IMG/VR virus record: IMGVR_UViG_3300032138_000002
Location: 64,001 to 128,000 of that record
Reading direction: 5' to 3' (one strand)
From: a virus
Taxonomy: Duplodnaviria; Caudoviricetes
DNA length: 64,000 nucleotides
The first letter of the stretch is position 1, and every line of letters begins with the position of its first letter. Below, one piece after another: positions 15,614 through 64,000 of the stretch. The notes beneath the pieces were generated by a model. That model was given only the letters and a program-made list of their open reading frames with translations, was not told the DNA's origin and made no database searches. A program made the position numbers and the translations under genes.

Positions 15614-15643
15614 ATTATATCAGATATCGATCTTTAATTTAAA
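15614..15643 (-). promoter_or_regulatory. Sigma70-type promoter TTTAAA-N18-TATAAT (TG extended) heading the resolvase-primase-SbcCD operon; probably leaderless
   Basis: Sense TGATATAAT-CATATT-ATG; no SD. Confidence 0.65.
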
Positions 15644-48298: not shown

Positions 48299-48300
48299 AA

Positions 48301-49377: not shown

Positions 49378-49417
49378 TTCATAGCCTATTAGTGTAATTA
49401 CTTCCTCGTAATCATTA

Positions 49418-51442: not shown

Positions 51443-51445
51443 TCA

Positions 51446-51730
51446 CTATTTTTCTCCTTGGATCAGATCGTACAATTCCTGTTTATCATTGTCGGTGAGA
51501 CCCACTTCTTTGCTTTCCTTTTTTTGGATCAACGCCGCTATTTTAACCAATTGTTCGTTGGATCGCTGGAGTGTTTCCACATATTTAGCGGCTATAGCTC
51601 CGACCTTTTCATGATTGGCGCTATCAACAGCCAAAAGATTCATAACATCTCTGAGAAGTGCTTGCGTTACTTCTCTATCATCAGTAATGTTCTGAATGGC
51701 CTCTTGGAGGTAGTGTTCTATATTTTTCAT
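51446..51730 (-). CDS. Hypothetical helical phage protein (94 aa)
   Basis: ORF with GAGG RBS and an upstream late motif. Confidence 0.65.
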   Translation of the reverse strand: MKNIEHYLQEAIQNITDDREVTQALLRDVMNLLAVDSANHEKVGAIAAKYVETLQRSNEQLVKIAALIQKKESKEVGLTDNDKQELYDLIQGEK

Positions 51731-51751
51731 TTTTCACCTCTATATCTTCAA

Positions 51752-51758
51752 TAATTAG
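51752..51758 (-). promoter_or_regulatory. Putative late-promoter motif CTAATTA at the head of the baseplate module
   Basis: Recurrent intergenic motif directly after the sigma gene. Confidence 0.55.
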
Positions 51759-51764
51759 AGGCAT

Positions 51765-52448
51765 TTATATTTTTCCATCATTCCAATCAGAACGAAAGTT
51801 CCTATATTTTATTCGTAGTTTATTCAAACTATTAACCACCTGCTTGGTGTTTAGCCCCGTTAGTTCTCTTAAATACAGATAGACTGCTTTTTTGTTAAAT
51901 ATTTCAATGTCATCCGAACTATTAAATAAAACGTCTATTGCTTTGAGAACCTTGCGTTCATTTTCTTTTAATTTAAGTTGGTGCCAGGTCGACATTTCTT
52001 CTTTGAAAAGTAACCAGAATTCTTGATGTTCTCTCTCGGACACGTAACCTTCATCATTTGATAAATATCGCTGCTCTAGTCCACTGTTAATATCATCAAA
52101 ATTTAACTCCCGGCGCGTTTTTGTAGCGTTTTTTTTGACCTTGTGAATAAACCAATTTTTTGTGATAACACTAAAATAAGAAAATGCCTTTGACCCCTTA
52201 TCGGGATCGTATTTGTCTAAGATCGTCGTAAGCCAGAGTTTACATTCTTCCATTAAAAACTCAATATTTGGAAGATTGGAGAACTTATAAGTATAAACAA
52301 TCTTGTTTACTAGCTCGTGAAAAGCCGGTTGTATCAACCTAATATAAAGCTCCTGTTTTTCATCGCGGTCATCGGACAAGGCATATTGAACGACGGCGTT
52401 CTCATGTTCTTTGGTAAAATAATGTCTACTCTTCCTCTTCTGGGCCAT
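51765..52448 (-). CDS. Phage RNA polymerase sigma factor (probable late sigma, gp55 analogue)
   Basis: Region 2-like LDKYDPDKGSKAFSYFSVITKNWF; C-terminal helix-turn-helix-like LYLRELTGLNTKQV. Confidence 0.8.
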   Translation of the reverse strand: MAQKRKSRHYFTKEHENAVVQYALSDDRDEKQELYIRLIQPAFHELVNKIVYTYKFSNLPNIEFLMEECKLWLTTILDKYDPDKGSKAFSYFSVITKNWFIHKVKKNATKTRRELNFDDINSGLEQRYLSNDEGYVSEREHQEFWLLFKEEMSTWHQLKLKENERKVLKAIDVLFNSSDDIEIFNKKAVYLYLRELTGLNTKQVVNSLNKLRIKYRNFRSDWNDGKI

Positions 52449-52722
52449 CTTCTTCCTCTTCAGTTACAGCTAGGGCTCTTTCGTACCCCTTTACGCGTTC
52501 AGTGAACTCTTTTGAGTGTTTTATAAGACTTTGAAGAGTGGAATCTCCATAAAAAGTTTCCATCGCGTGGATACTTTCAAGGTGACTGCCAAAGCCAGTC
52601 AGATCATCCAGTAAATCCTCCATATGTTCGAGCACATAAAAATAGTCTCTTAATACGTTTCTTAAGTACCATATAAAAAATATATTCAAGAGAACTGAGA
52701 ATGCTAATAGTGTTGTGATCAT
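52426..52722 (-). CDS. Small membrane-anchored protein
   Basis: N-terminal TM (ITTLLAFSVLLNIFFIWYL), acidic tail. Confidence 0.65.
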   Translation of the reverse strand: MITTLLAFSVLLNIFFIWYLRNVLRDYFYVLEHMEDLLDDLTGFGSHLESIHAMETFYGDSTLQSLIKHSKEFTERVKGYERALAVTEEEEDGPEEEE

Positions 52723-52976
52723 GGGTGATATTCTTCGGTTTTGAGCTTTTTCTTCTCTTCGGCTACCTCTTTTTTGGTAGCTTCTATATGTTGCTTAACC
52801 AAATCTCCAACTTTTTTCTTGTTTGTCCGTTTAGGGGTTTTTGGAATAGGGGTGTAAACCTTTTTTAAAGTATTGATCTCTCCACATTCCTGACACTTTT
52901 CAAGGCGCTCATCCATGGCATGAACCACCATAAACTCTTTTTCGCACCCTGCGCATCGGTAATGATAACGAGGCAT
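52719..52976 (-). CDS. FmdB-family zinc-ribbon protein; start re-called to 52976
   Basis: MPRYHYRCAGC...CQECG; TAATG coupling to the upstream gene. Confidence 0.8.
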   Translation of the reverse strand: MPRYHYRCAGCEKEFMVVHAMDERLEKCQECGEINTLKKVYTPIPKTPKRTNKKKVGDLVKQHIEATKKEVAEEKKKLKTEEYHP

Positions 52977-53275
52977 TAAATTTCGTCGGGATCCAACGTG
53001 CTGCACTCCACTTCTCCATCATCATCATCTTCTGTGATAGTTTTTGTGGCAGTAGCTAATGCATCTGCGTCTTCGTGGGAAACCTTCACCAAAGGTGGGT
53101 TAAGAACCACTAAGGTTCCATCAGTGTTTGGGGTTAGACGTAAGCCCTTCAAAGTGGGAACAATATCGCTTTGTTCGAGCAACGATTTTTGTAGTGCCAT
53201 CATTACAGTTCCAACTGCTTGGTCTGATAGCAAAAATTCTGTCAAATTGGTTGTAGTGTCGGTTGTAGTTGTCAT
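52976..53275 (-). CDS. Hypothetical protein
   Basis: ORF coupled to the downstream gene; start at 53275 or 53290. Confidence 0.6.
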   Translation of the reverse strand: MTTTTDTTTNLTEFLLSDQAVGTVMMALQKSLLEQSDIVPTLKGLRLTPNTDGTLVVLNPPLVKVSHEDADALATATKTITEDDDDGEVECSTLDPDEI

Positions 53276-53283
53276 TTTCTTAT

Positions 53284-54249
53284 TCACCATTTAAAGTTTT
53301 GTTTATAATATTGGATTAACGTGGGCAATTCGTTATCGAAATCCTTTTGATTGTTCCAGCCGAGGGCTCTCAGTTTTTCATCGTTGAGCGCGTACCGAAC
53401 ATCTTGTCCTTCTCTAACATATGATAAATCCACATATTCTTCCCAATTATACTTGTTCTCGAAGAAAGTGTTAATGATTTTTTTTACGGTGTCGCGGTTG
53501 GCTTGTTGAAGATTGCCCGCCACATTATATATTTCATTTATCGAACCTTTTTCGATAATTGTCATGACTGCTTCGGCGGTGTCGTCAGCATGCAGCCAGT
53601 TTCTTACTGGTTCGCCTGCGTTATGAAGCCTTATCTTTTTGTTCCTTTGTAGTAGTTTTACTGCAACGGGAATCAACTTTTCTGGATATTGGCCAATTCC
53701 ATAATTGTTGGTGGGGCGGAGTATATTATACTGAAGTCCATATGTTCTTGCCCAGGCTAAGATAAGCATGTCTGCGGCGGCCTTTGAAGCAGCGTAAGGG
53801 TTGCTTGGGTTTAAGAGGGCGGTTTCGGTAAAGGCTCCGTGTTCAATGTCTCCATAGACTTCATCTGTGCTAAAATGAAAGAACACCGGTGGGTTGGCAA
53901 TATTGTTAGGCTTATTTCTTATTAAGTCTAGTAAATTGCGAACTCCATCCACGTTTGTGTGTAAAAAGTCAGTACTATCAATTATACTATTACCTACGTG
54001 AGATTCTGCAGCGATATTAATCACATAGTCACAATCAGGTAAAAATGATAGTTCGCAAATATCTTCGTTGATAAAAGTGAAGTTCTCTTCTGTCGGAGTA
54101 TTAAATTCGCGGAAATCATAAAGAAAATCCTCGTTGGCTGCATAGGTTAAAGAATCAACCCCATAAACCTTCCACCCTCTTTCAAGACACTTGCGGGTAA
54201 CATAGTGGCCAATAAGCCCTAAACAGCCTGTAATCGTCACTAACTTCAT
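53284..54249 (-). CDS. rmlB: dTDP-glucose 4,6-dehydratase-like NDP-sugar dehydratase
   Basis: TGCLGLIG, DSLTYA, AAESHV, STDEVYG, YAASK, NNYG..QYPEKLIP, RNWLH. Confidence 0.9.
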   Translation of the reverse strand: MKLVTITGCLGLIGHYVTRKCLERGWKVYGVDSLTYAANEDFLYDFREFNTPTEENFTFINEDICELSFLPDCDYVINIAAESHVGNSIIDSTDFLHTNVDGVRNLLDLIRNKPNNIANPPVFFHFSTDEVYGDIEHGAFTETALLNPSNPYAASKAAADMLILAWARTYGLQYNILRPTNNYGIGQYPEKLIPVAVKLLQRNKKIRLHNAGEPVRNWLHADDTAEAVMTIIEKGSINEIYNVAGNLQQANRDTVKKIINTFFENKYNWEEYVDLSYVREGQDVRYALNDEKLRALGWNNQKDFDNELPTLIQYYKQNFKW

Positions 54250-54689
54250 CTTATTAACTCTTCCTTATAGTAAGCGGCTCTGTCGCTGCATATGCCCGCA
54301 CAGTGCCTTAATTCCTCAGTTATTTCAGGAGGGGGTTTTACAGCTATCGAATTTTTAACCAAGGTTTGACCTGGGTATGTCCAAATATAACCCCTGTTAG
54401 TTAAAGCAAAATTATCAGTCTGATGCCAAAAACAATGGACGTCCAACCTCAGCAATCTTTCAAGGGCGTTTAAATTTTTGGCGTGACACCAGAAGTTTTT
54501 ATTAAAAAGGAAGTTGGTTGGGATATATTGATCAGAACCATCATGTCCCAAATAAAAGCTCCCCTCTTTCCACCACACATCTATTTCTACTTCAAACCCC
54601 TTATAAACTGCGTCTAAAATATAGTTGGGAGTATTTTCAAAAGCAGGCTGTGGGCCTATGATGTTGCCTCTATGGGCTATTATTTTCAT
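54246..54689 (-). CDS. GDPD/PI-PLC-like phosphodiesterase-fold protein; start re-called to 54689
   Basis: MKIIAHRGN, ENT, VEIDVW, LGHD, GICSD; ATGA overlap with the upstream gene. Confidence 0.75.
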   Translation of the reverse strand: MKIIAHRGNIIGPQPAFENTPNYILDAVYKGFEVEIDVWWKEGSFYLGHDGSDQYIPTNFLFNKNFWCHAKNLNALERLLRLDVHCFWHQTDNFALTNRGYIWTYPGQTLVKNSIAVKPPPEITEELRHCAGICSDRAAYYKEELIR

Positions 54690-55429
54690 CCAATATTCCT
54701 GAGAATAAAATTCTCCATCATTATAACACATTCTGGGAGGGGTTGTTTAGCTGTGTTTATGGTTAAATCTGGGGTTTGGGGTTCTTCAAAGGGGTCTGAA
54801 ATGCCAGTAAAATTATAGATCTTATCGGGGTGACCATCAGGTAGGAGCGCCTTAGCATATAACCCCTTTATATCTCTTTTCTTTACCGTCTCTAAATCGC
54901 ATTTTATGTATATTGTTTTAACGCTAGAATCTTTTTTCTGGTTTTCTATTCTTATCTCTTCATAGGGGTTGATAGCAGCGATGATTGATATTATGCTGTT
55001 TCTGGCTAATATTTTGCTCACAAAACTTAAACGCCTAATATTGTTGTTTCTGTCTTCTTTGGAAAAACCCAAGTCTTTGCACAGGTTTTCGCGATACTCG
55101 TCGCCGTCAATTACCTCTACCAAATAACCTTTTTTTCTCAGTCTCTGCGCTGTGTGCTGCGCTAGTGTGCTCTTGCCGGCACCAGATAAGCCCGTCATAT
55201 GAAGTGAAATGCCTTTGGTTCGACCCCAACGAATGACAGCCCAAAATCGTTCATGATAAATATAGGCAAACAAAGTGACAATTTGGTGGAGCACACTAAT
55301 GCTGACAGACGTGGCTGCTGAACTGGTAATAAAATATGAACAACATAATAGGCTCAAAAAGCCTAACAGTCTCCACGACAAAGATTTAACTATACTGCGT
55401 CGTCGGGTATCAATCATCCAGATATCCAT
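54686..55429 (-). CDS. cysC: DUF2061 membrane domain fused to adenylyl-sulfate (APS) kinase
   Basis: RSIVKSLSWR...YHERFW (DUF2061 pattern); TGLSGAGKSTLA, DGDEYR, LGFSKEDR, RDIKGLY, FTGISDPFEEP. Confidence 0.88.
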   Translation of the reverse strand: MDIWMIDTRRRSIVKSLSWRLLGFLSLLCCSYFITSSAATSVSISVLHQIVTLFAYIYHERFWAVIRWGRTKGISLHMTGLSGAGKSTLAQHTAQRLRKKGYLVEVIDGDEYRENLCKDLGFSKEDRNNNIRRLSFVSKILARNSIISIIAAINPYEEIRIENQKKDSSVKTIYIKCDLETVKKRDIKGLYAKALLPDGHPDKIYNFTGISDPFEEPQTPDLTINTAKQPLPECVIMMENFILRNIG

Positions 55430-56237
55430 AGTGACGGAGCCATGGGCCGCACTCTGTCTCTATAAAAGCTATTTGTTCGTCGGTCAAAGTTTCTTTGTAT
55501 CCCCCCACTTTGCCGTTATTTGATGTAATGTGTTCTTTTAACATTAACGTGGCCGAATATCGGGGGTCACTCCAATCACCAGAAGTCAACAAATTGTCCG
55601 TATCATCTTTAATGCCTTCCGCTTTCATGATAATCGACTTAAGTACCTCTTCTTTCATGGTATCGATCTCGGGAAAAAAGTTTCTCATCAAAGTTTTGAG
55701 TGTTTCAAGGGGGTCAACCTTATAATCCTCATAACACCATTCATAGCGTTTAACATATTTGTTTATATCAGGAATTGCTTCGTTATCGACATATTGCTGG
55801 ACCTTGGAAAAATCCTTTTGCTTTGATGCGGCATACCACATCAGGTGTTCTTTCACTATGTTTTCGAACTCCTCTTGTGATAATTCTACGTTTCCATGGT
55901 GTTCCCTTCTTTTACGCAACGCCGAGGCCGCAGTATCGCGGATATCACGACGTACGGTAATTAAAAAATCACACACGATATCTCCCGTATGTTCCTTTGC
56001 TATGAGTATATCCACGGGAGCAGGGGGTTCTTTTGTGTGATATTCACAATAATCCTGACTGAGGGCTACGGCGACGTTAAGTTGGCAGGTTTCGCAGAAA
56101 ATTCGCATAAGATTGAGAAGCAGAGTGCTTCCAGATTGCGGCATTCCCCCTATACACACAATCGGTGGCCGTTTTTTTTGCCATGTCTTTTTCCGCATTC
56201 GTGTCCAGATGTTATCGTCTTTCCAGGACAAGTCCAT
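55410..56237 (-). CDS. PAPS-dependent sulfotransferase-family protein
   Basis: 5'-PSB-like GMPQSGSTLL, 3'-PB-like RDIRDTAAS, YED, GKVGGYKETLTDEQIAFIE; next to APS kinase. Confidence 0.75.
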   Translation of the reverse strand: MDLSWKDDNIWTRMRKKTWQKKRPPIVCIGGMPQSGSTLLLNLMRIFCETCQLNVAVALSQDYCEYHTKEPPAPVDILIAKEHTGDIVCDFLITVRRDIRDTAASALRKRREHHGNVELSQEEFENIVKEHLMWYAASKQKDFSKVQQYVDNEAIPDINKYVKRYEWCYEDYKVDPLETLKTLMRNFFPEIDTMKEEVLKSIIMKAEGIKDDTDNLLTSGDWSDPRYSATLMLKEHITSNNGKVGGYKETLTDEQIAFIETECGPWLRHYGYLDD

Positions 56238-56950
56238 TATTGGTTCTCCAAAAAATATTTGAGGTCTTCAGGAGTACCTAGGCCCCACATTTTGTTAACA
56301 TAAAATGGAATTAAAGTTTTTCCGTCTTCTAGCATTTCGTTATAAACCGGGGCAATATAATATTCCCCATTTACTCTCACGTTTTTTTCTATCATTTGGT
56401 GAGCATATTTAACGAACTCTGAGCCTCGTCGATACCAATATATACCACATGTGGCGATATTGGAAATAGGCCTTTTCTCAGCCACCTCTGTAACAAAACC
56501 GCGAGAATTTGTCTTTACAAAGGACCATTTTGGGTGTACGGCATTGAACGTGAAGACCATCGAATCTACATCAGTTAAGTTCTTCAAAGTTTTAAAATTC
56601 TCGGCCTCGTACTCAATAAATTGATCAGAATTGGCGATTAATAAGTCCTCGTCGTCGTTAATAAGATCTTGAGCTAATAGGGCAGTGCAAGCCGCTCCTT
56701 CAGTTAACTCTTTTACCTCCACATGAGAACAGCGGCCATTTGTTATACGTTCCAGAGTATCTAAGAGACCGGCATACTTTTTTACGTGATCGTGCCTTAC
56801 TAAAAATATATATTCACAATCAAAATCTAGATTTTCTACCACCGTTTGGATCATGGGTCTTCCACGAACATCAATCAATGGTTTGGGAAAAGTATATCCC
56901 TCTTTGGTGAATCTACTGCCTTCACCCGCCATGGGTATTAAAACTTTCAT
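56237..56950 (-). CDS. Sugar-phosphate nucleotidyltransferase
   Basis: LIPMAGEGSRF...PKPLI, TEGAACT, ANSDQ, VAEK, LGTPED. Confidence 0.88.
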   Translation of the reverse strand: MKVLIPMAGEGSRFTKEGYTFPKPLIDVRGRPMIQTVVENLDFDCEYIFLVRHDHVKKYAGLLDTLERITNGRCSHVEVKELTEGAACTALLAQDLINDDEDLLIANSDQFIEYEAENFKTLKNLTDVDSMVFTFNAVHPKWSFVKTNSRGFVTEVAEKRPISNIATCGIYWYRRGSEFVKYAHQMIEKNVRVNGEYYIAPVYNEMLEDGKTLIPFYVNKMWGLGTPEDLKYFLENQ

Positions 56951-57566
56951 CTATAAATCTTTTAACCCCCTTTTTAATTACTTCGGTGGCATTGGTGACT
57001 TTCATTACACTACACCCGGATGCACGTGCAGCTTTTTCCCCTTTGGGGGAATCTTCTATTATCATAGCATTTTTAGGGACACAATTAAAGTGTTTTAATA
57101 CCTGAATATAACCTTCGGGGTCTGGTTTTGCATTAATCACATCTTCATTAGTTAAAAAGTACTCAAGATGCTCTAAAATACCAGCTTCAGTCAATACAAG
57201 TGAGGCCGTTTCTCGAATACTATTAGTAAAACACGCAATTCGGGCGTTATTGGATTTAAGCCATTGTATTAATTCAACTTTTTCCGGTCTTTCTTCGGAT
57301 TGTGCTCTGATTATCTCTAGAGTGCGCTCTTGCTTAAAATCAAATATGTCTTGAACATTATCTTTTTCAATTTTATTGGCCTCCACCAGCATTTTTAATT
57401 TTATCTTAGTGGGGAGGCCGTTGTATATTTTATAATGTTCCTCTAGGGGAATCTCATAGTTACAAACATGTTTTAATGCAGCATTGAATGCTTCTAAATG
57501 CCATCCGCAAGCATCTACCAACACCCCGTCCATATCAAAAATAACTAGTTCTGGAAACCTAGACAT
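56922..57566 (-). CDS. HAD-family phosphatase (beta-PGM-like); start re-called to 57566
   Basis: FDMDGVLVD, FTNS, KPDPEGY, IEDS; GAGGT RBS. Confidence 0.88.
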   Translation of the reverse strand: MSRFPELVIFDMDGVLVDACGWHLEAFNAALKHVCNYEIPLEEHYKIYNGLPTKIKLKMLVEANKIEKDNVQDIFDFKQERTLEIIRAQSEERPEKVELIQWLKSNNARIACFTNSIRETASLVLTEAGILEHLEYFLTNEDVINAKPDPEGYIQVLKHFNCVPKNAMIIEDSPKGEKAARASGCSVMKVTNATEVIKKGVKRFIDESFNTHGG

Positions 57567-58281
57567 TTGTACCTCTAGCCGCTGGGTCAATATTGTATTC
57601 ATCCAGGAGACTTTTAAGTTTTTTAGGATAACACTGAAAATCCCATTTACCTTTTACGACCGCGGTGGCAAAATAAGGATAAACATGACTATCCCAGTGA
57701 AAGTCTCCTCGCATTTGTTCGCCTTCCATAAAAGTCATCGCGCACTTAAATGCATGTTTTGCACAAACAATATTACTGTTGGCTTCGAATTTCCATATAT
57801 TCTCACCGGGAGTTTCCTCATAGATACGCATTAAATTTTCTTTTTTACACAATGTGGGTTGAATTGCGAATTGTAAATCCGGAGGGCAATAAAAAACATT
57901 CTCGTGAAGCATGGTGGGAGTTAAGGTTTCATATGGTCTGTACGTTGCCCGTACAAATTTAATAAAATCAAGTTGTTGTTCTTTTATCAAGCTACAACAT
58001 TTCTCTATTATTTGATTATTCGGCTCCCCATATAAAAACATATCCTCATGGTGAAATACAATTATGTCTTCTTCGACTTGCTGAATACCTTGCAAAACGC
58101 GTTGTTGATAGGGCAGTGCATCGTCATACCGCAACAAAACCCAGTCGGAATTTAAATCCGGCGTGCTTTGGTCAGCAATTAGATATTTCTTTACTTCCGG
58201 CAAAAACTTGTCCATTTGAGCGAACATGGGTTTCCAGATATCTGAATAATCTGAATGGGAATAGAAAACGGCGGCGTACAC
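57559..58281 (-). CDS. Putative glycosyltransferase-like protein; GTG start re-called to 58281
   Basis: Sugar-cluster context; HHEDMFL acidic motif, QPTL.KK, WKFE, AVVKGKW; AGGA RBS before the GTG. Confidence 0.45.
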   Translation of the reverse strand: MYAAVFYSHSDYSDIWKPMFAQMDKFLPEVKKYLIADQSTPDLNSDWVLLRYDDALPYQQRVLQGIQQVEEDIIVFHHEDMFLYGEPNNQIIEKCCSLIKEQQLDFIKFVRATYRPYETLTPTMLHENVFYCPPDLQFAIQPTLCKKENLMRIYEETPGENIWKFEANSNIVCAKHAFKCAMTFMEGEQMRGDFHWDSHVYPYFATAVVKGKWDFQCYPKKLKSLLDEYNIDPAARGTNV

Positions 58282-58289
58282 TAGTATTC

Positions 58290-59090
58290 CTACAACAATG
58301 CCATGAAGTCTGCGTGGGCGGTGGCGCCACACTCATCCATTTGTTTAAAGAAATCAACGGATAAGCTTCGATTCACATCGTCGATAAAAGGCGAGAACTT
58401 ATCATGAGTTAATTCCTTTTTTTCGAACGTTAAAAGATGATCTATCTTTGTTTCTAGCACTTTGTCCCACACGCGTGTTCCGATTGTTGGGATTGTTCCC
58501 AGTTCACACACATCCCGTAGACCTTTCACCGTACGCATTGAGCCGGCAATAATTTCTGCGCAGTCTGATTTACGCTTTTGAGCAAAAGCTACGTGTGCGG
58601 CAGCGTCCACTCCCTGCTCTTCCATCCGGCCGGGAATCAAACTAACATAACGGACATTATAAGTGAAACATGATAAGGCAGTTGAACAGTCGGCGACGCC
58701 GGTGACGTTTGTTTCCATAAAATTATTCAATTGGTCTACAACCTCAAGCACTCCGTGAAATGGGGGTATTTTTAGGCCTAGGCGTGTGGTGCCGTCTGTA
58801 AACTGACATATATACTCGGCCCATTTAACAATGTCATGAGGACACATCTCCGAATTTGGCGCTTGTACATATACGACGCCTTTGTTGTCGCCTCGTATTT
58901 TGGTTACAAGCGCACATAACTTCGGGAGATGTTCCGTCCATTGTTCTAGGCGATCCATATTTACCTTTTTAAATGCATTTGGATTTGTGGTGATCCCGCG
59001 CACGTGAGTACTATCGACGGTATTTTTAAGGCGCCCCCAGACATTTTCGATATATTCTATATCGGCAGTATCAAAAAAGAAATCAAACAT
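58290..59090 (-). CDS. Divergent transaldolase / fructose-6-phosphate aldolase family enzyme
   Basis: FFDTAD, GITTNP, Schiff-base LKIP, NVT, YVS...GR, IAGSMR. Confidence 0.8.
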   Translation of the reverse strand: MFDFFFDTADIEYIENVWGRLKNTVDSTHVRGITTNPNAFKKVNMDRLEQWTEHLPKLCALVTKIRGDNKGVVYVQAPNSEMCPHDIVKWAEYICQFTDGTTRLGLKIPPFHGVLEVVDQLNNFMETNVTGVADCSTALSCFTYNVRYVSLIPGRMEEQGVDAAAHVAFAQKRKSDCAEIIAGSMRTVKGLRDVCELGTIPTIGTRVWDKVLETKIDHLLTFEKKELTHDKFSPFIDDVNRSLSVDFFKQMDECGATAHADFMALL

Positions 59091-59448
59091 TTTTTTCCTC
59101 CTCGGCTTTTAATAATGTTTTTTTAACAGTGTCCCAATCAGTGAATTTTATTCCCTTATCATCTATAAAATAATCTACATGGGGTTTTCCAAACAATAAC
59201 TCATCATAAGGGATGCAGTATTTGTCTAGCCAATCTAAAACAAGCTTCCCTTGATTTGCAATAATTCTTCCCACGTTGTTTTCACAAGTTCTCATGTTTC
59301 GAGCAGTAAAAATGACAATATAATATCCACGTTGTTTTAAAAATTCTAATGTTTCTACAGCGTTAGGCAAAGGTTTTACATCACGGTAACTCTGGTCTGC
59401 GGCTTTGGTCTCGCATATTGTCCCGTCTAAATCAACGCATATCTTCAT
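59083..59448 (-). CDS. Small HAD phosphatase (capsule biosynthesis phosphatase type)
   Basis: VDLDGTI, FTAR, YDELLFGKP, YFIDDK. Confidence 0.88.
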   Translation of the reverse strand: MKICVDLDGTICETKAADQSYRDVKPLPNAVETLEFLKQRGYYIVIFTARNMRTCENNVGRIIANQGKLVLDWLDKYCIPYDELLFGKPHVDYFIDDKGIKFTDWDTVKKTLLKAEEEKNV

Positions 59449-60403
59449 AATCTAACGCCTCGTTTAAAAGTTTGATACCAGTAGTATACATCACCGTTTG
59501 CCGGGGCAAGCTATCATAATGTCGCGAGCACATACCAATGTATATCAATCCTTGAATTAACTTAGCTCTATTATCTCTGAATCTGTCGAATTTATTAAAC
59601 ACTTTTTTAATTTTTTCTTTATTATCATTTGCAAAGGTAACCTGAAAGTGGTTTAAGTCTTTATTCTCTTCTAACTCAAATTCATCAAAAATAATATATT
59701 CATATCCCCCTTCGAAAGAATGAACAAGTTTAGCTATATCATAGAGTGGATCACCAAACACACCGTCCTCACCAAAATGCCCGCGAGGGTCTACGAATTT
59801 TAACAAATGGGTCTGAGTTTTTGCATTTACCCCACAAAGAATATTCGAAAAACAAAAATCTCCATGAATAACCGAAAGTTGACGCAAAGGCGTTAAATAA
59901 TGTCGAATAAGTTCCTGTAGCTGATTCCATAAACAGTGGAAGTTCGCATAGGAGCGTCCGTCGATAATAAGTTTTTGATGGGTGGCTATGACTGCAAATT
60001 TAGGGTTTTCTAGTAATTCTTTATAATAACGTTCCGTTTTGCCAATGTACATTGCTTCTGCGTACGCTGTGAAATCGTCGTTTTTATGGGTTGTTACAAA
60101 AGAATCTAAAGCGTCGTTAATACCCGATGCAACATTTTCCCAAAAGGCTTGATCGAAATCCTCGTATACCATATAATCACCCAGATTATTATAAGCGTAG
60201 TACTCTAATTCCATCGAATGCTCCCCATCTTCATGTGAAGATTTGCGAAATCTAGGGAAAAAGATAGAGTGCGGTGTCGTCTCTATATCTTTATAATAAT
60301 TTATTTCATCAAAGAGGCGTGTTTCGCGGCTTCGTTTCGTTATGGTTCCTAACGATGAGTCAATCGAAAACGAATTATAGGCTCTCGTTATATGCTGCTT
60401 CAT
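59432..60403 (-). CDS. Aminoglycoside-phosphotransferase-fold sugar kinase (capsular polysaccharide type); start re-called to 60403
   Basis: IHGDFCFSNIL, DPRG.FG, GDPLYDIAKL.HS; GAGGA RBS. Confidence 0.8.
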   Translation of the reverse strand: MKQHITRAYNSFSIDSSLGTITKRSRETRLFDEINYYKDIETTPHSIFFPRFRKSSHEDGEHSMELEYYAYNNLGDYMVYEDFDQAFWENVASGINDALDSFVTTHKNDDFTAYAEAMYIGKTERYYKELLENPKFAVIATHQKLIIDGRSYANFHCLWNQLQELIRHYLTPLRQLSVIHGDFCFSNILCGVNAKTQTHLLKFVDPRGHFGEDGVFGDPLYDIAKLVHSFEGGYEYIIFDEFELEENKDLNHFQVTFANDNKEKIKKVFNKFDRFRDNRAKLIQGLIYIGMCSRHYDSLPRQTVMYTTGIKLLNEALDYEDMR

Positions 60404-61775
60404 AGACTTCCTCGATGGACAAGATCGATAAGCCATTATTCACCGCAAATTTGTTAAGATCGCCGCCTTTTGTCATCGTCCCATCGTCATTCATAATTTC
60501 ACAAATAATAGCAGCCGGTTTAAGACCCGCTAGTTTCATTAATTCTACAGAGCCTTCCGTGTGCCCTCTGCGCTCCTTCAGGAGGCCGTCACGTGCCCTC
60601 AGGGGGAACAGGTGGCCTGGGCGTGTAAGGTCGTCAGGCTTTGACGTGGGGTCCAGCAATACTTGAAGAGTAACCAGCCGATCGTACACTGACATGCCCG
60701 TAGTTGTGCCGTGCTTTGGGGCACCATCAACCGATACGGTAAACGGAGTTTCGTTAGCATCCGTATTATTCTCAACCATGGGTGGAATTTCCAAACGCTT
60801 AAGATCGGCGTCCGTCATGGGCACACACATCAACCCCTTCGCTTTATTCATGGTAAAAACAAGGTTTTCGACGGATGCGCGTTCGGCAGCGATCACAATA
60901 TCCCCCTCATTTTCGCGATCATATTCATCCACCAAAATAATTGGTTTCCCTTGTCTAAGTTCTTCGAGGGCGTTTTGCATTTTTCTGCTTTTAATCATTT
61001 CATTTTCCTTTGTAGCTGATTTGGCAATAAAAATGTCTACTTTGCTAGACATTTTTTTAATTTCTAACCATGTTTCAAATTCGGCGAGGCTTTCTGGAGT
61101 GTCCATCGATCTCATTTCTAGAATATTGTAATCGAAGATATTCTTACCGGCTGCAATTGCTTCATTAAAAACTGGTGAAATATAAAATTCGTTATTAACA
61201 CGAATATTTTTGGTGATCATGGAATTGGCAAATTCTATAAAATCGGATCCGTGGCGCCAATAAAAGGCGCCCGCCAAGGCTGTTGTAGAAATAACTTCCT
61301 TTTCAGCTACTCGATTTACGCGGCCACCATCACCAACCTCGGCATAACTCCATGATTTATTTCCGCTCTTATCATTAAAAGTAAAAATCATTCCGTCGAT
61401 GTCTGGATTGTTGATTGTTGTAGTAAATGTTTCCGTTTCCCAGAGGAAATAGTTATCACAATTGACAATCATTAGCTCTTCGTCGTTGTCGATATGGCGC
61501 GCCGCTAACAATGCTGTACAAGCTTGGCCGTCGGTTATACCATCTGCTACCACAAGTCGGCAATCGGGGACAATTTGTTTCAGTGTTTGATCGATATGAT
61601 ATTTATCGATATGTTCTTTCTGTACAATAAAAATATATTGCCCCTCTATGTTTAAACTCTCCACAACGCGTTGTATCATTGGTTCGCCGGCGATGTCGAT
61701 TAGGGGCTTAGGTAAACTATACCCCACTTCTTTAAAACGCTTTCCGGCGCCTGCCATTGGTATTAATATATTCAC
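60375..61775 (-). CDS. ribB: Nucleotidyltransferase fused to 3,4-dihydroxy-2-butanone-4-phosphate synthase (RibB); GTG start re-called to 61775
   Basis: N-terminal LIPMAGAGKRF...PKPLI; C-terminal RENEGD, GLMCVP, FTVSVD, TTGMS..DR, RPGHLFPL, RRGHTEGS, ICEI. Confidence 0.9.
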   Translation of the reverse strand: MNILIPMAGAGKRFKEVGYSLPKPLIDIAGEPMIQRVVESLNIEGQYIFIVQKEHIDKYHIDQTLKQIVPDCRLVVADGITDGQACTALLAARHIDNDEELMIVNCDNYFLWETETFTTTINNPDIDGMIFTFNDKSGNKSWSYAEVGDGGRVNRVAEKEVISTTALAGAFYWRHGSDFIEFANSMITKNIRVNNEFYISPVFNEAIAAGKNIFDYNILEMRSMDTPESLAEFETWLEIKKMSSKVDIFIAKSATKENEMIKSRKMQNALEELRQGKPIILVDEYDRENEGDIVIAAERASVENLVFTMNKAKGLMCVPMTDADLKRLEIPPMVENNTDANETPFTVSVDGAPKHGTTTGMSVYDRLVTLQVLLDPTSKPDDLTRPGHLFPLRARDGLLKERRGHTEGSVELMKLAGLKPAAIICEIMNDDGTMTKGGDLNKFAVNNGLSILSIEEVYEAAYNESL

Positions 61776-61777
61776 TT

Positions 61778-62659
61778 TTATTCCCACTCCGTTTGAAGGG
61801 CTATAGCACTGTCCCATAACTCATTTTTTATTAGAAACCATTTCATCAGCAAAATACCATTGACAGCCAAATAATAAGGATACTTATGTAAATTTTTACT
61901 GCGTTCCTCCGGAGGTTTTGTTTTTTCGTTGCTCCGAAAATCATTCATTTTAGATTCGGGCCAGCCTGATGTCACTGTCTCCCTATATTCACTTCTCAAT
62001 TGCAAATAGTCTAACAACACTTTTTCATAAAGGCTGCAAAAAATATCCATGTTTTTGGAATTAGAATAGAACCACATATCCGCGGGCCCTTCATTGAAAA
62101 GATCCCAATCAGCTTGATATAAATAATTCATATCCAACGTCGGGTCAAAGTTGATACATTGACACGGAAAAGGATTTTGTTTTCCTGGGCCGCTCGTGGC
62201 GCGATTGATGCGACCTAAGTCGAAGCGTGCCTTAATAACACAGTCATATTTAAACCCTTGTTCTTTTTCATATTCTCGCTTAAGAACAAGCGACTGAGAA
62301 AGAGAATAATATTGACTTAACAACCTCTCTGGGCCCACGTACCCAGTACCAGAAGTCGACGTCATTGTCCAATTTCCCAAAAAATTATAGGGATCGATAT
62401 CTTCTCGACTTACCTCGTGTTCTTGAGCAATGGGTACAAAGTCAATTTGGGGCTCTATAATGTGTTTTCTAGGCTTATATAAATCAACTAGTTTCTCCTC
62501 TAGATGGGGCTCCCAATTGTGAAAGAACACATCAATTTCGCAATCCTCCGAGCCATGGCTAAGAATATGTTTCTTAATATATTCAAACCCATCCATGCCC
62601 CGGGAGGAACTATCTTTCAGGGAATCGAAATAACCCGATAAACAGAGAGCGATTTTCAT
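61778..62659 (-). CDS. Putative glycosyltransferase-like protein (MKIALCLSG type)
   Basis: KIALCLSG, DVFFHNW, SQYYS, YDCVIKARFD, ADMWFY; sugar-cluster context. Confidence 0.5.
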   Translation of the reverse strand: MKIALCLSGYFDSLKDSSSRGMDGFEYIKKHILSHGSEDCEIDVFFHNWEPHLEEKLVDLYKPRKHIIEPQIDFVPIAQEHEVSREDIDPYNFLGNWTMTSTSGTGYVGPERLLSQYYSLSQSLVLKREYEKEQGFKYDCVIKARFDLGRINRATSGPGKQNPFPCQCINFDPTLDMNYLYQADWDLFNEGPADMWFYSNSKNMDIFCSLYEKVLLDYLQLRSEYRETVTSGWPESKMNDFRSNEKTKPPEERSKNLHKYPYYLAVNGILLMKWFLIKNELWDSAIALQTEWE

Positions 62660-62685
62660 TGGTAAATGCCTTTTAGATAATAATC

Positions 62686-62713
62686 ATTATACCACAATTT
62701 GATTTTTTTTAAA
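62686..62713 (-). promoter_or_regulatory. Sigma70-type promoter TTTAAA-N16-TATAAT (TG extended) driving the sugar cluster
   Basis: Sense TGTGGTATAAT in the AT-rich gap upstream of 62659. Confidence 0.65.
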
Positions 62714-62725
62714 TACATTAATATT

Positions 62726-63736
62726 TTAAGTTTCATCTCGATCTATAGTGGTATCGGCGGGGGGTTTGACGGCCCGCACATAATAGGCAGGTCGGGTAGT
62801 AAATAAATCCGTTCCCATAGTTACGGTAATATCTTTAAAGCCGGCAATATAAAAATCTCTCAACAAATAGCGTGGATCTTCCACTCGGCAATTCATAGGA
62901 GCCTGTCCGTATTCTTTTTGCTGGCGCAAGCCCCATGTGCCCGTATAGCCGTTGCTTATTTCCATATCTATAAAATGGTGGGACACGATCCCCCCTGGCT
63001 TTAACACACGAAAGCTTTCTTCGATCAAAGACATCCGATTATAATAATCGGGAATGTGAATAAAGACTGCGGAAGACATGACAAAATCGTATTCTTCGGA
63101 CAGTGCCGGTTTTAAGTCCCAGCCACTGGTTTCAAAGCTTTGTGATTTGCCGGCGCCATGGATATCTTCGGCATATTTTTTACTATATATAATATTTTGT
63201 TCAGAGATGTCGCAGCCATCCACTCTTTCAAACTCAGCTATATCGAGCAAATTTTTAAGATTACGTCCGCAGCCACAGCCAACATCTAAAGCTTTTTTTC
63301 CCTTCCAACTGGGCGCATCAGAATATACATCCCCCAATAACACCGTCCAATATTCTCTATCCTCATCCCGTTCCTTGTGATTTCCGACTGTCATTCCAGT
63401 GTGCTCGGCCTCAAAAAAACCTTTTTGGTAGGCGGTGTAGGTTTCTATATTGGGGGCGCCGGTTGTTTCTATCCAATCGAGGGCGAAGTATTCACCCACC
63501 GTTACCCCCTCGTCGACCAAATCTTGGCGGAAGACATCTAAACTGCTTTGATAAGAAGCACCAAACACCTCGCTGAATATCCATATAACGCCGGGGCGGA
63601 GGGATAATCTCTGGGAGCGCATTTCCATGCGGATGTCTTTGTAATTTGTATATATTGTAGTATCCGGCTTCCCAAAGTTTTTTTCATCATTGCAATAGAT
63701 TTCATAACCCTTCATTACGTCTGGAAGATGGTTCAT
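62726..63736 (-). CDS. Class I SAM-dependent methyltransferase with an unknown N-terminal extension
   Basis: ALDVGCGCGRN, GCDIS, YDFVMS...FIH, RVLKPGG. Confidence 0.85.
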   Translation of the reverse strand: MNHLPDVMKGYEIYCNDEKNFGKPDTTIYTNYKDIRMEMRSQRLSLRPGVIWIFSEVFGASYQSSLDVFRQDLVDEGVTVGEYFALDWIETTGAPNIETYTAYQKGFFEAEHTGMTVGNHKERDEDREYWTVLLGDVYSDAPSWKGKKALDVGCGCGRNLKNLLDIAEFERVDGCDISEQNIIYSKKYAEDIHGAGKSQSFETSGWDLKPALSEEYDFVMSSAVFIHIPDYYNRMSLIEESFRVLKPGGIVSHHFIDMEISNGYTGTWGLRQQKEYGQAPMNCRVEDPRYLLRDFYIAGFKDITVTMGTDLFTTRPAYYVRAVKPPADTTIDRDET

Positions 63737-64000
63737 TATCTCACCTTTTTCCTGGTTAAAAACAAGTCGAACTCTCTTAAATCTCGATAGGGTGGATCCT
63801 CGGGAAGATCGTCCACAGTTTCAGGATAATTTTGCATTAACATAAGGCCTCGGGCTGCTTGTTCCGGAGTCATATACATATTCCAGCCTTCTTCTTCAAT
63901 CATATCCTCATGATAGGGGACTTCTGATCTTCCTTCATATCTGGCTTTGCGAAAATATTCTACGGCTTTTATGTCGTCAGTCAAGATCATTCCTCCTTTG
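63736..64000 (-). CDS. DegT/DnrJ/EryC1/StrS aminotransferase, C-terminal part (truncated by the window edge)
   Basis: KGGMILTDD...RYEGR...GWNMYMTPEQAARG; frame is open to the window end. Confidence 0.75.
   Translation of the reverse strand, partial: KGGMILTDDIKAVEYFRKARYEGRSEVPYHEDMIEEEGWNMYMTPEQAARGLMLMQNYPETVDDLPEDPPYRDLREFDLFLTRKKVR

Follow-up and report, generated by a model that had tools for sequence, protein, structure and literature searches.

At the end of the window (the whole 64,000-nt stretch analysed, positions 64,001 to 128,000 of IMG/VR record IMGVR_UViG_3300032138_000002), we find support for an operon of co-oriented genes, resident in the phage genome, that would make an unusual glycan in activated and tailored form. 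The operon would comprise four modules, namely a RibB-fed nucleotide-sugar route, a 6-deoxyhexose branch, sulfation and transfer, and we hold with middling confidence the proposal that these modules serve glycosylation of virion proteins, favoured over modification of the host envelope or of DNA.

Positions 53284-64000 contain 13 complete ORFs and the 3' part of a 14th (DegT-like), all on the minus strand, with neighbouring genes overlapping by 1-62 nt and a 66-nt gap at 62660-62725 as the sole exception, in agreement with the thirteen co-oriented, mostly overlapping genes described in the initial annotation. Profile (HMM) searches recovered every family named there, whereas the extent given did not stand: the operon continues for 7.4 kb beyond the window end to a total of 21 genes and ~18.2 kb (window 53284 to L002:8455), about two-thirds of it had been visible, and a conserved GT4 pair had been missed. 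Eight genes lie wholly or partly past the window end (L002:736-8455), encoding the rest of the DegT-like protein, an FkbM methyltransferase, a GNAT protein, a GT-D-fold protein, a WecB-like 2-epimerase, a 536-aa protein with a GT2 domain and two GT4 proteins. The genes within the window are as follows.

53284..54249, minus strand: g21, NDP-hexose 4,6-dehydratase (RmlB-type SDR), the island's last gene (PF16363, 183 bits; TIGR01181, 280 bits, below the 365-bit equivalog cut-off)
54246..54731, minus strand: g20, short GDPD-like protein, the N-terminal half of a glycerophosphodiester phosphodiesterase fold (no Pfam match)
54686..55429, minus strand: g19, DUF2061 membrane domain plus APS kinase, for PAPS supply (PF01583, 153 bits; TIGR00455, 175 bits, above the 138.7 cut-off)
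55410..56237, minus strand: g18, PAPS-dependent sulfotransferase (weak Pfam match, 21 bits)
56237..56950, minus strand: g17, sugar-1-phosphate nucleotidyltransferase, NTP-B (matches to RmlA-long, archaeal GlmU and MurU models)
56922..57602, minus strand: g16, HAD-IA, beta-phosphoglucomutase-family hydrolase or mutase, partner of g17 (PF13419, 99 bits; TIGR02009, 99 bits)
57559..58332, minus strand: g15, candidate transferase with Met36 as its probable true start (Pfam, NCBIfam and PDB profiles all without a match)
58290..59090, minus strand: g14, TAL/FSA-fold class I aldolase of a separate catalytic type (PF00923, 38 bits)
59083..59448, minus strand: g13, small HAD-IIIA phosphatase, AfhF homologue (TIGR01689 EcbF/BcbF, 86 bits)
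59432..60436, minus strand: g12, APH-fold sugar kinase, homologue of the AfhE C-terminal domain (weak Pfam APH match; HGDxxxSN and DPRG motifs invariant)
60375..61817, minus strand: g11, nucleotidyltransferase (residues 15-250; PF00483) fused to the DHBP synthase RibB (residues 272-473; PF00926, 243 bits; TIGR00506, 218 bits, exceeding the cut-off of 177)
61778..62659, minus strand: g10, protein of GT-A / nucleotide-diphospho-sugar-transferase fold, candidate transferase for the cassette product (no Pfam match)
62726..63736, minus strand: g09, class I SAM methyltransferase (PF08241, 49 bits, residues 145-268)
63736..64000, minus strand: g08, 3' part of a short DegT-like protein of 206 aa, the remainder extending to L002:1356 (PF01041, 83 bits, in two stretches)

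The record derives from an uncultured marine phage and, because it measures 159,483 bp at ~90% completeness, we reject the jumbo-phage label that had been given to its relatives. Portal, TerL and baseplate genes are present on the same contig as the island, whose GC content (0.39-0.42) is like that of its surroundings. The island comes after a PD-(D/E)XK nuclease gene and the soluble GT4 pair and lies upstream of same-strand tail and baseplate genes; the gene order of Flavobacterium phage immuto, the closest cultured isolate by TerL, matches this arrangement (nuclease, GT4 pair, variable sugar genes), and related viral contigs are syntenic with the island at 40-86% protein identity. We propose that the placement of the island is fixed in a lineage of T4-like aquatic myophages.

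Four cassette genes form the core of the first module: they encode a nucleotidyltransferase-RibB fusion, a kinase of APH fold, a small HAD phosphatase and an aldolase resembling transaldolase. Our literature search found no paper on this cassette. The RibB part of g11 matches Vibrio cholerae RibB (7uez) at 204 bits with the DRENEGD and RRGHTEG motifs intact, and the g14 profile matches subfamily-5 transaldolases at 1e-5, which bears out the earlier naming of RibB and a transaldolase-family protein. Like TalB and FSA, g14 is a TIM-barrel class I aldolase with DTAD, TTNP and K-I-P motifs, the last containing the Schiff-base lysine (Lys107), and with an Arg/Ser/Arg phosphate site (R155/S184/R186). 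It differs in having Gln76 in place of the Glu of TAL, Ile152 in place of the Phe of TAL and the Tyr of FSA, and a C-terminal extension of ~45 aa. These residues are family-wide (Gln in 100/102 members, Ile or Leu in 102/102, Lys in 101/102), and the family is small and separate, with only 240 matches among 1.84e9 representatives. By hhalign, g12 aligns to residues 210-504 of Bas47 bas47_0151 at 98.2% probability (E 4e-14), and g13 is 30% identical to the Bas47 phosphatase bas47_0150 (E 4e-12).

The cassette is recurrent. In a set of 50 viral contigs collected with the aldolase profile, the kinase was found in 50, RibB in 49, the HAD phosphatase in 47 and an NTP-transferase in 46. Among the 49 viral loci that match RibB, 18 showed the nucleotidyltransferase-RibB fusion, of which a 94%-identical copy occurs on a 31-kb metagenome contig. 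The fusion is also present in the cultured Synechococcus phage S-SKS1, where the four cassette genes are adjacent (SWZG_00039-00042) and in the same order (nucleotidyltransferase-RibB 40% over 97% of the query, kinase 41%, HAD 54%, aldolase 44%), flanked by SDR epimerases and transferases. The S-SKS1 cluster (SWZG_00036-00055, NC_020851) is annotated only as hypothetical proteins, 'phosphoheptose isomerase' and 'transaldolase', and we found no study of it. However, S-SKS1 belongs to a separate genus (Llyrvirus) with a cyanobacterial host, and homologues of the GT4 pair, APS kinase, sulfotransferase, GT-D-fold protein and short DegT-like protein were not found in the 29-kb region compared.

Judging from its sequence, the RibB domain would convert ribulose-5-P to 3,4-dihydroxy-2-butanone-4-P (DHBP), and the aldolase may then make or remodel a sugar with an omega-phosphate, a reaction in which DHBP could stand in for glyceraldehyde-3-P as its methyl-ketone analogue. 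A ketone electrophile is nevertheless unusual for a class I aldolase, which counts against the proposed cooperation between RibB and the aldolase. By homology to a characterised pathway, the AfhE-like kinase would phosphorylate the anomeric OH, the AfhF-like HAD would take off the terminal phosphate, and the RibB-fused nucleotidyltransferase would yield the NDP-sugar. That pathway is the UDP-D-arabinofuranose route of Escherichia coli phage HY126 (arabinose-5-P isomerase, AfhE and AfhF) and of RB69 (gp55, gp52:53 and gp51) (PMC13326640; PMC6024577). Both routes start from ribulose-5-P and lead from an omega-phospho sugar through a 1,omega-bisphosphate and a 1-phosphate to an NDP-sugar, with homologous kinase and phosphatase. 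In contrast, the island has RibB and the TAL-like aldolase in place of an SIS-type isomerase, encodes its kinase as a separate gene, has its nucleotidyltransferase fused to RibB and contains no ThyA-like 5-hydroxy-dCMP synthase, because of which DNA is an unlikely target. Arabinose cannot be the product if the pathway runs through RibB. The initial annotation had compared these enzymes to the HddA/GmhB/HddC heptose route. The parallel with the bacterial GDP/ADP-heptose route (GmhA, HddA or HldE, GmhB, HddC) holds in that the order of action on a sugar with a terminal phosphate is the same, first a kinase, next a HAD-IIIA phosphatase and last a nucleotidyltransferase, although the homology proper is to AfhE and AfhF. 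The island kinase is APH-fold rather than GHMP or ribokinase-like, its phosphatase, of EcbF/BcbF type, is a HAD of 121 aa that lacks a cap, and there is no GmhA.

In a second branch, the HAD mutase or phosphatase, the second nucleotidyltransferase and the RmlB-type dehydratase would feed a 6-deoxyhexose, possibly 4-amino, N-acyl or methylated through the short DegT-like protein, the GNAT protein and two methyltransferases, with the WecB-like enzyme as a putative UDP-ManNAc supply. The nucleotidyltransferase g17 and its partner g16 are 57% and 38% identical to the respective domains of a marine HAD-NTP fusion (P0068). The GxxGxxG, STDEVYG and YAASK motifs are present in g21, consistent with its earlier naming as RmlB, and g09, correctly called a methyltransferase, has an additional 140-aa N-terminal region. 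The DegT family assignment of g08 likewise stood, while its description as a full aminotransferase did not: it keeps the NCTNAL, YDAAK and SFHIKK (Lys) motifs and is missing ~50 internal residues and the C-terminal domain. Same-length relatives occur in three related loci (71-78% identity), and g08 is a conserved short form that may be inactive. The g20 profile, built from five phage homologues, matches GDPD N-termini (7e0v, E 0.0036) with H20, R21, E49, D51, H63 and D64 invariant.

For sulfation, the g19 APS kinase would turn host APS into PAPS, which the g18 sulfotransferase would consume. Over almost its whole length, the g18 profile (four phage homologues) aligns with SULT1C2 (2e-7) and SULT1B1 (1e-6), and the 5'-PSB (GMPQSGST) and 3'-PB (RRDIRDTAAS) motifs are invariant. 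The PAPS supply and transfer pair named initially is upheld. No ATP sulfurylase is encoded in the record, and APS must therefore be supplied by the host. None of the other related viral loci compared has g19, but a copy with 86% identity occurs on a metagenome contig of 31 kb, equal in length to the contig that carries the 94%-identical nucleotidyltransferase-RibB.

The island is confirmed to encode four to seven soluble transferase domains, one of them with a GT-D fold. We propose GT4a, GT4b, the 536-aa GT2-domain protein and the GT-D-fold protein (g05; GT-D/DUF1792, 4pfx at 1e-5) as the better-supported transferases, with g10 and g15 as weaker candidates. Characterised members of the GT-D/DUF1792 fold glycosylate serine-rich adhesins. 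The AF2 model of g10 (pLDDT 66) retrieves GT-A enzymes at VIA Z 8-9 and, weakly in Foldseek, GT6/GT8, and its homologues adjoin the kinase-HAD-NTP trio in 12 bacterial loci. Relatives of g15 occur in three related loci (47-53% identity); in the ESM Atlas it falls in viral clusters only, the nearest named cluster being GT2 at 0.92, which is a lead only. No hydrophobic segments were found in the transferases, all of which are predicted to be soluble, and the only clear membrane-spanning segment among the 21 island proteins is the DUF2061 domain of the APS kinase.

One could read the island as unrelated auxiliary metabolic genes beside glycosyltransferases, with RibB serving riboflavin synthesis, the transaldolase pentose-phosphate flux (compare cyanophage talC) and CysC sulfur assimilation. 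Genes for talC, cysC-like and cofactor functions are indeed common in marine phages, and S-SKS1 carries a canonical talC elsewhere in its genome. However, RibB is fused in frame to the nucleotidyltransferase and linked to the kinase and aldolase in 49/50 contigs, no further rib gene was present among the proteins scanned in and around the island, the aldolase lacks the catalytic pairs of TAL and FSA, and the APS kinase gene lies directly upstream of and overlaps the sulfotransferase gene, all of which make this reading highly improbable. Scarcely credible is a recent intact copy of a characterised bacterial LPS/capsule locus, phage-captured or mis-binned, which the initial annotation had named as one case against its own reading and which we rejected: the best bacterial kinase homologues are only 23-35% identical, and RibB and the aldolase, recurrent in the viral contigs, are found in 0/80 bacterial kinase loci. 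Megablast against the phage collection gave no match for the region, and both the GC content and the synteny with viral contigs argue against such a copy, even though APS kinase, WecB and RmlB individually have close cellular relatives and an abundant marine family shares 55-64% identity with the DUF2061-CysC form.

As to the acceptor, hypermodification of DNA, in which a sugar is placed on a modified phage base as an escape from restriction and CRISPR (compare RB69, Bas47 and HY126), would suit the homology to AfhE and AfhF (which serve DNA arabinosylation), the preceding PD-(D/E)XK nuclease gene and the GT4a match to the Pfam 'GT4-conflict' family (33 bits against a threshold of 26). We consider it improbable: neither a ThyA-family hydroxylase/hydroxymethylase nor ThyX was found in the ~90% complete record, no dNMP kinase adjoins the island, the bacterial homologues sit in polysaccharide loci, and sulfation, methylation and this number of transferase domains go far beyond known DNA glycans. 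Remodelling of the host envelope, with nucleotide sugars and PAPS feeding host lipid-carrier pathways or phage transferases acting on host LPS, capsule or S-layer glycans, is a stronger contender, though still rather unlikely. The kinase-HAD-NTP trio lies beside GT4, GT2, WavE and Wzm/Wzt in the 80 bacterial loci and adjoins DUF2972 capsule genes in Campylobacter; its bacterial homologues belong to LPS/capsule loci that have ABC exporters; WecB and RmlB are classic envelope-sugar enzymes; and comparable cyanophage clusters have been read as host cell-wall synthesis and modification (PMC12801897). Against this, the transferases are soluble by prediction and include a GT-D fold, the GT4 pair that anchors the island is conserved throughout the phage lineage, and neither a lipid-carrier initiating transferase (Bac_transf, Glycos_transf_4) nor a Wzx flippase was found in the 159-kb record, itself ~90% complete. 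The earlier statement that export genes are lacking thus stands for Wzx, the one export family named there that the search covered. Furthermore, tail-region proteins of this genome contain [ST]G[ST] more often than their shuffles do (12 vs 1.9, 28 vs 8.7 and 9 vs 2.1). This excess, an indirect sign, together with the lack of an initiating transferase, Wzx and a ThyA-type enzyme, leads us to favour virion protein glycosylation. We would like to note that host carriers and exporters could serve the island, which is a point against the virion reading.

Chloroviruses and Mimivirus decorate their virion proteins without host pathways, by means of their own nucleotide-sugar synthesis, methylation and cytoplasmic glycosyltransferases. 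The island resembles them in this gene content, but they are eukaryotic viruses with other sugars (rhamnose, viosamine, bacillosamine), and we know of no RibB-based route or sulfation module among giant viruses. Mycobacteriophages also decorate structural proteins with phage-encoded soluble glycosyltransferases and sometimes methyltransferases (Freeman et al. 2023, PMC10527164, as related in PMC12619734), which the present phage may do as well. As related there, their systems consist of two to four genes, draw their nucleotide sugars from the host and modify the C-termini of capsid and tail-tube subunits, whereas the present one is a 21-gene supply and tailoring pathway with [ST]G[ST]-rich tail and baseplate proteins as candidate acceptors. 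Were the glycan destined for the host envelope, it would alter the surface of the infected cell, for example through superinfection exclusion, prevention of progeny re-adsorption or grazer avoidance; under virion glycosylation, which we favour, the soluble transferases would assemble it directly on soluble acceptors, most probably Ser/Thr residues of tail, baseplate and neck proteins.

The glycan island of this phage is a variant among known phage nucleotide-sugar pathways and phage glycosylation, and what is apparently new in it is the front end formed by RibB and an aldolase. The initial annotation had proposed an operon for an activated and tailored glycan at positions 53284-64000. Its gene set is confirmed and its interpretation partly supported: on the minus strand of the interval lie 13 whole ORFs together with the 3' part of one more, with neighbouring island ORFs overlapping by 1-62 nt and a sole gap of 66 nt at 62660-62725. 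The gene families named in that annotation were recovered using Pfam and NCBIfam, namely an RmlB-type SDR, DUF2061 with APS kinase, a sulfotransferase, a methyltransferase, DegT, two sugar-phosphate nucleotidyltransferases, a HAD-IA protein, a 121-aa HAD-IIIA protein, a TAL/FSA-like protein, and an APH-like kinase. RibB was also recovered, in the form of an in-frame nucleotidyltransferase-RibB fusion (g11). The island proved larger than reported. It continues past the window edge into the adjoining DNA (L002), and because eight genes lie wholly or partly beyond the edge, it comprises 21 genes over about 18.2 kb, including the following features:

56237-57602, minus strand: a split HAD and NTP-transferase (g16 and g17)
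L002, on the upstream side of the DegT-like gene: an FkbM methyltransferase, a GNAT protein, a 262-aa protein (g05), and a WecB-type UDP-GlcNAc 2-epimerase (TIGR00236, 234 bits)
L002, next upstream: a 536-aa GT2-domain protein, and two GT4 glycosyltransferases, GT4b (L002:5934-7187) and GT4a (L002:7184-8455)
Outside the island, directly before these genes: a PD-(D/E)XK nuclease gene

The GC content of the island (0.39-0.42) is the same as that of its surroundings. The T4 late-promoter motif TATAAATA was found 5 times versus 5.5 expected, showing no enrichment, and scans for sigma-70 promoters and terminators gave results near chance, with no strong minus-strand terminator within the island. 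A sigma-70-like site lies on the minus strand in the gap at 62660-62725 (TTTAAA, a 16-nt spacer, TG, and TATAAT). This site could be an internal promoter, although such sites are near chance level in this AT-rich DNA.

The source record is a single linear sequence of 159,483 bp with a CheckV completeness of about 90%, and the phage, with a genome of roughly 175 kb, is a distant T4-like myophage from an aquatic setting; the earlier label of a jumbo phage does not hold at this size. By TerL, the nearest cultured phages are Flavobacterium phage immuto (41.6%) and Microcystis phage Mel-JY01 (40%), and a megablast search of phage genomes with the island region returned no match. The content of the genome includes:

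Nearly all on the minus strand: genes for portal, large terminase, tail-fibre and baseplate-wedge proteins, and an SbcCD-like nuclease
Nearly all on the minus strand: giant ORFs of 3221, 2576, and 1450 aa
27034-36699 and 40568-48298: the ORFs of 3221 aa and 2576 aa, adjoining baseplate genes

In a single 1052-aa ORF at 10993-14151, the N-terminus resembles an SbcD-like nuclease and the remainder an SbcC-like ATPase, making it an apparent SbcD-SbcC fusion. Upstream of the island lie a 226-aa protein (L002:9569-10249) with a weak, sub-threshold C-terminal match to anthrax-lethal-factor-like (ATLF) domains and a PIN-PhoH fusion protein (L002:10585-11898).

The C-terminal domain of g11 is, by family membership, a predicted DHBP synthase (RibB). 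The domain scores 218 bits against TIGR00506 (cut-off 177) and resembles V. cholerae RibB (7uez, 204 bits), and the DRENEGD, RPGH, and RRGHTEG motifs (acidic loop and His/Glu) are kept. A search of IMG/VR using the fusion protein yielded 16 viral contigs, while the aldolase profile yielded 50. All 50 of the latter carry the kinase, and the RibB domain is present in 49 (the one contig without it ends inside the cassette), the small HAD in 47, and the NTP-transferase in 46; a match to the fused NTase-RibB was found in 18. This near-perfect linkage, together with the fusion here and in those 18 related contigs, argues for RibB being on the pathway. In the nearest viral contigs almost the entire island is conserved, gene order included (40-86% protein identity), and the cultured phage S-SKS1, which infects Synechococcus, has the fusion, kinase, HAD, and aldolase genes side by side (SWZG_00042-00039, 40-54% identity). 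No discussion of the SWZG_00039-00042 cluster was found in the published S-SKS1 literature, and a literature search found no paper describing RibB in a phage glycan, cyanophage, or polysaccharide context; the front end of RibB and a Gln/Ile-type aldolase is thus apparently undescribed. A distant viral contig (L013) encodes a RuBisCO-large-chain-like protein (PF00016, 116 bits; L013:14793-16022) shortly downstream of its RibB cassette, after a 117-aa ORF, and also carries a GT11 fucosyltransferase and CmcI-like methyltransferases.

The TAL/FSA-like aldolase keeps the Schiff-base Lys (GLKIPP), the DTAD and TTNP motifs, and the Arg/Ser/Arg phosphate site, with K107, R155, S184, and R186 invariant in 9 phage sequences and kept by at least 93 of the 102 representatives of the family. 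At the position of the TAL Glu the residue is Gln, and where TAL has Phe and FSA has Tyr it is Ile, a site equivalence that we assume by reading the motifs VYVQ and YVSLIPGR against the known TAL/FSA motifs. Of 102 full-length family members, 100 carry Gln, all 102 carry Ile or Leu, and 101 carry Lys, and neither the catalytic pair of TAL (Glu and Phe) nor that of FSA (Gln and Tyr) occurs. A profile search of 1.84 billion representative proteins retrieved only 240 sequences, 115 of them at E 1e-30. The aldolase forms a small, sharply separate family with its own predicted catalytic type: the aromatic side chain common to TAL and FSA gives way to a smaller aliphatic one, and the acceptor phosphate site is retained.

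For the kinase and the small HAD, there is a characterized counterpart. In phage HY126, AfhE is bifunctional, with an N-terminal nucleotidyltransferase and a C-terminal kinase, and with the HAD phosphatase AfhF it converts arabinofuranose-5-phosphate via the 1,5-bisphosphate and the 1-phosphate to UDP-arabinofuranose, the substrate being drawn from ribulose-5-phosphate via an arabinose-5-phosphate isomerase (PMC13326640). Homologues of AfhE/AfhF are found in RB69, DLP3, and Bas47 (PMC13326640; PMC6024577). A tblastn search of phage genomes with the island kinase (g12) retrieved S-SKS1 and, more distantly, 137 Escherichia phage records, many of them annotated "GlmU" or "UDP-arabinose biosynthesis". 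The kinase aligned to residues 210-504 of Bas47 bas47_0151 (hhalign, 98.2% probability, E 4e-14), with the motifs HGDxxFSN and FIDPRGxFG common to both, and the 121-aa HAD protein (g13) matched Bas47 bas47_0150 by BLASTP (30% identity over 101 aa, E 4e-12). BLASTP of g11 to the N-terminal nucleotidyltransferase domain of the Bas47 protein gave no significant match, and the kinase profile retrieved only chance-level protein-kinase matches from the PDB. The homology of kinase and HAD makes the activation half of the cassette a relative of the characterized pathway. In AfhE the nucleotidyltransferase is fused N-terminally to the kinase, whereas here the kinase has a gene of its own (334 aa) and RibB is the fusion partner of the nucleotidyltransferase. 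The AfhE/AfhF route also uses an arabinose-5-phosphate isomerase (SIS), whereas Pfam and NCBIfam scans detected no SIS family in the 21 island proteins. By gene content, the isomerase is replaced by the putative RibB and aldolase. Arabinose is excluded as the product of a route that passes through RibB.

A kinase profile scan of 185,579 species genomes gave 80 bacterial loci in which the kinase is 23-35% identical to that of the island, with an adjacent NTP-transferase in 76 and a small HAD in 69. This trio of kinase, small HAD, and NTP-transferase is widespread in polysaccharide loci (L021-L100), often adjoining WavE (PF07507), and its hosts include Legionella, Campylobacter, Helicobacter, Pantoea, Xenorhabdus, Photobacterium, and many MAGs. 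Neighbouring genes encode GT4, GT2, WavE (17 loci), and parts of Wzm/Wzt ABC exporters, as well as DUF2972 capsule genes in Campylobacter. Several of the bacterial kinases exceed that of the island in length (507-542 aa in three loci that were examined), and the kinase is sometimes fused to an NTP-transferase-like domain, a weak N-terminal one being seen in L021; no family matched the N-terminal regions of the long Pantoea and Campylobacter kinases. The sugar made by the bacterial trio appears to be uncharacterized. The RibB and aldolase profiles had no match among the ORFs of the 80 loci, and the island is therefore not a recent bacterial capture; a recent intact copy of a bacterial locus, which the initial annotation had considered, was not found. 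Homologues of g10 (293 aa, no Pfam match) adjoin the trio in 12 bacterial loci, and its structural model has a GT-A/nucleotide-diphospho-sugar-transferase fold (VIA Z 8-9; Foldseek weak). We tentatively suggest, with low confidence, that g10 is the likely transferase for the cassette product. Assignment of g10 as WavE was rejected, the hhalign probability against the bacterial WavE family being 8.5%.

The genes g16 and g17 are the split form of a common marine HAD-NTP-transferase fusion (38% and 57% identity to P0068). That fusion, of about 455 aa, is abundant in marine data and is also found in the cyanophages S-CAM9, S-PRM1, and S-8S53. In the RmlB-type protein g21, both motifs typical of NDP-hexose 4,6-dehydratases (Thr-Asp-Glu and YxxxK) are present, and the score against TIGR01181 (the RmlB equivalog) is 280 bits, below the 365-bit cut-off; it is a candidate dehydratase of the RmlB type. 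The DegT-like protein is short (206 aa; PF01041, 83 bits), and the Lys of its SFHIKK motif aligns with the PLP lysine. A full DegT/DnrJ/EryC1 aminotransferase is a PLP enzyme of fold type I with about 370 aa. Compared with it, the C-terminal domain is missing entirely, as are about 50 internal residues, whereas the motifs for PLP-phosphate, Asp, and Lys are preserved. It is 71-78% identical and of the same length in three relatives, and the immuto version is 214 aa. We regard it as a conserved short form and a putative aminotransferase of uncertain activity. A half-length GDPD-like protein is encoded by g20.

The predicted sulfation pair is sound. The APS kinase (g19) scores 175 bits against TIGR00455 (cut-off 138.7) and 153 bits against PF01583. 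In the sulfotransferase (g18), GMPQSGST (5'-PSB) and RRDIRDTAAS (3'-PB) are invariant and the profile matches SULT1C2 over residues 18-244 at 2e-7; its single-sequence Pfam score is 21.3, just below the cut-off of 22. No ATP sulfurylase is encoded. The APS-kinase-like g19 may have an alternative substrate similar to that of Cj1415. The MeOPN route (Cj1415-1418) was considered and rejected because the scans showed no glutamine-kinase or amidotransferase-like family among the island proteins and the sulfotransferase is adjacent. The g19 protein is 55-64% identical to an abundant marine DUF2061-CysC family, and among the related viral loci compared, only the present phage has an APS kinase of this type, which looks like a late addition to the island. 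An 86%-identical copy of the APS kinase lies on a 31-kb metagenome contig equal in length to the contig with a 94%-identical copy of the NTase-RibB fusion, and is therefore probably from the nearest relative of the phage.

The island probably serves to coat the phage's own particles, a reading with indirect support from its soluble transferases, a GT-D fold, and an [ST]G[ST] excess in tail-region proteins. The AF2 model of g05 (262 aa, pLDDT 71) matched 4pfx and 4phr in Foldseek (E 1e-5, probability 1.00, TM ~0.5) and also 5v4a (1.4e-3), and its D31-G32-E33 is invariant; the DxE motif is what we take to be the metal-binding motif of the GT-D (DUF1792) family, and the model places g05 in this predicted fold. 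The GT-D enzymes characterized so far build up the O-glycans of serine-rich adhesins in bacteria. For g05, neither Pfam nor a PDB sequence-profile search gave a match, and PDB searches with profiles of g15, which stays unassigned, and of the 536-aa GT2-domain protein likewise had no match. The motif [ST]G[ST], tested against 200 composition-preserving shuffles per protein, is in excess in a 445-aa protein encoded at 15620-16957 (12 observed versus 1.9 shuffled), the 3221-aa protein (28 versus 8.7), a 545-aa protein (9 versus 2.1), and two smaller proteins, all in the tail region. The pair of GT4 genes is conserved in the lineage and is found directly after the PD-(D/E)XK nuclease gene in the present phage, in the viral contig L008, and in phage immuto (NC_055915, record positions 48008-59988), where the nuclease and GT4 pair are followed by different sugar genes that include a short DegT (gp172). 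Homologues of GT4a are present as well in Mel-JY01, in RM378, and in an uncultured phage of 484 kb. As in an O-antigen locus, the anchor appears fixed and the cargo variable, which suits a virion surface structure under diversifying selection.

Remodelling of the host envelope by the island is a serious rival to a virion coat, since the bacterial homologues of the trio sit in envelope loci and the cyanophage literature reads comparable clusters in this way (PMC12801897). The island transferases have no hydrophobic segments, and PF02397 (Bac_transf), PF00953 (Glycos_transf_4, WecA/MraY type), and PF01943 (Wzx) are absent from the record of about 90% completeness. The earlier statement that export genes are missing is thus upheld for an initiating transferase and Wzx, the families that the search covered. 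As for DNA, the AfhE/AfhF system has a ThyA-homologue 5-hydroxy-dCMP synthase, whereas PF00303 had no match in the 159-kb record and did retrieve the control genomes. With neither a ThyA-family nor a ThyX gene in the record, the DNA acceptor of the arabinosyl system is missing.

DHBP is CH3-CO-CHOH-CH2OP, that is, glyceraldehyde-3-phosphate with methyl replacing the aldehyde hydrogen, and its phosphate is two carbons from the carbonyl, as in a normal aldolase acceptor. In the mechanism we propose, DHBP from RibB would be the electrophile and a dihydroxyacetone or glycolaldehyde unit the nucleophile for the aldolase. The product would be a C-methyl-branched ketohexose-6-phosphate or pentose-5-phosphate, an analogue of the furanose phosphates used by AfhE-type kinases, and AfhE/AfhF-like enzymes would then activate the branched sugar. 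Ketone electrophiles are unusual for class I aldolases, and for this reason we consider a role of DHBP as electrophile unlikely. Alternatively, the aldolase may make an ordinary or 1-deoxy sugar phosphate, with RibB having another role. The wider proposal is that the cassette leads, with no need of SAM or radical chemistry, to a sugar that is either C-methyl-branched (a tertiary alcohol) or 1-deoxy, and that in this phage the sugar would be sulfated and carried as an O-glycan on tail and baseplate proteins. This too is put forward as a doubtful, speculative reading.

We know of no sulfated glycan on any phage virion, nor of one made by a phage. If the wider proposal is true, this would be the first one reported from a virion, and it would bring with it a second role for RibB outside riboflavin synthesis, a new catalytic subtype of the transaldolase fold, and a new front end for the phage kinase/phosphatase route to nucleotide sugars. 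The question is directly testable because the cultured phage S-SKS1 carries the cassette and the cultured phage immuto carries the GT4 anchor. Aquatic phages would then carry O-antigen-like variable glycan islands at a fixed locus, and a virion glycan coat would matter for adsorption, for stability and grazing in seawater, and for how antibodies recognize therapeutic phages.
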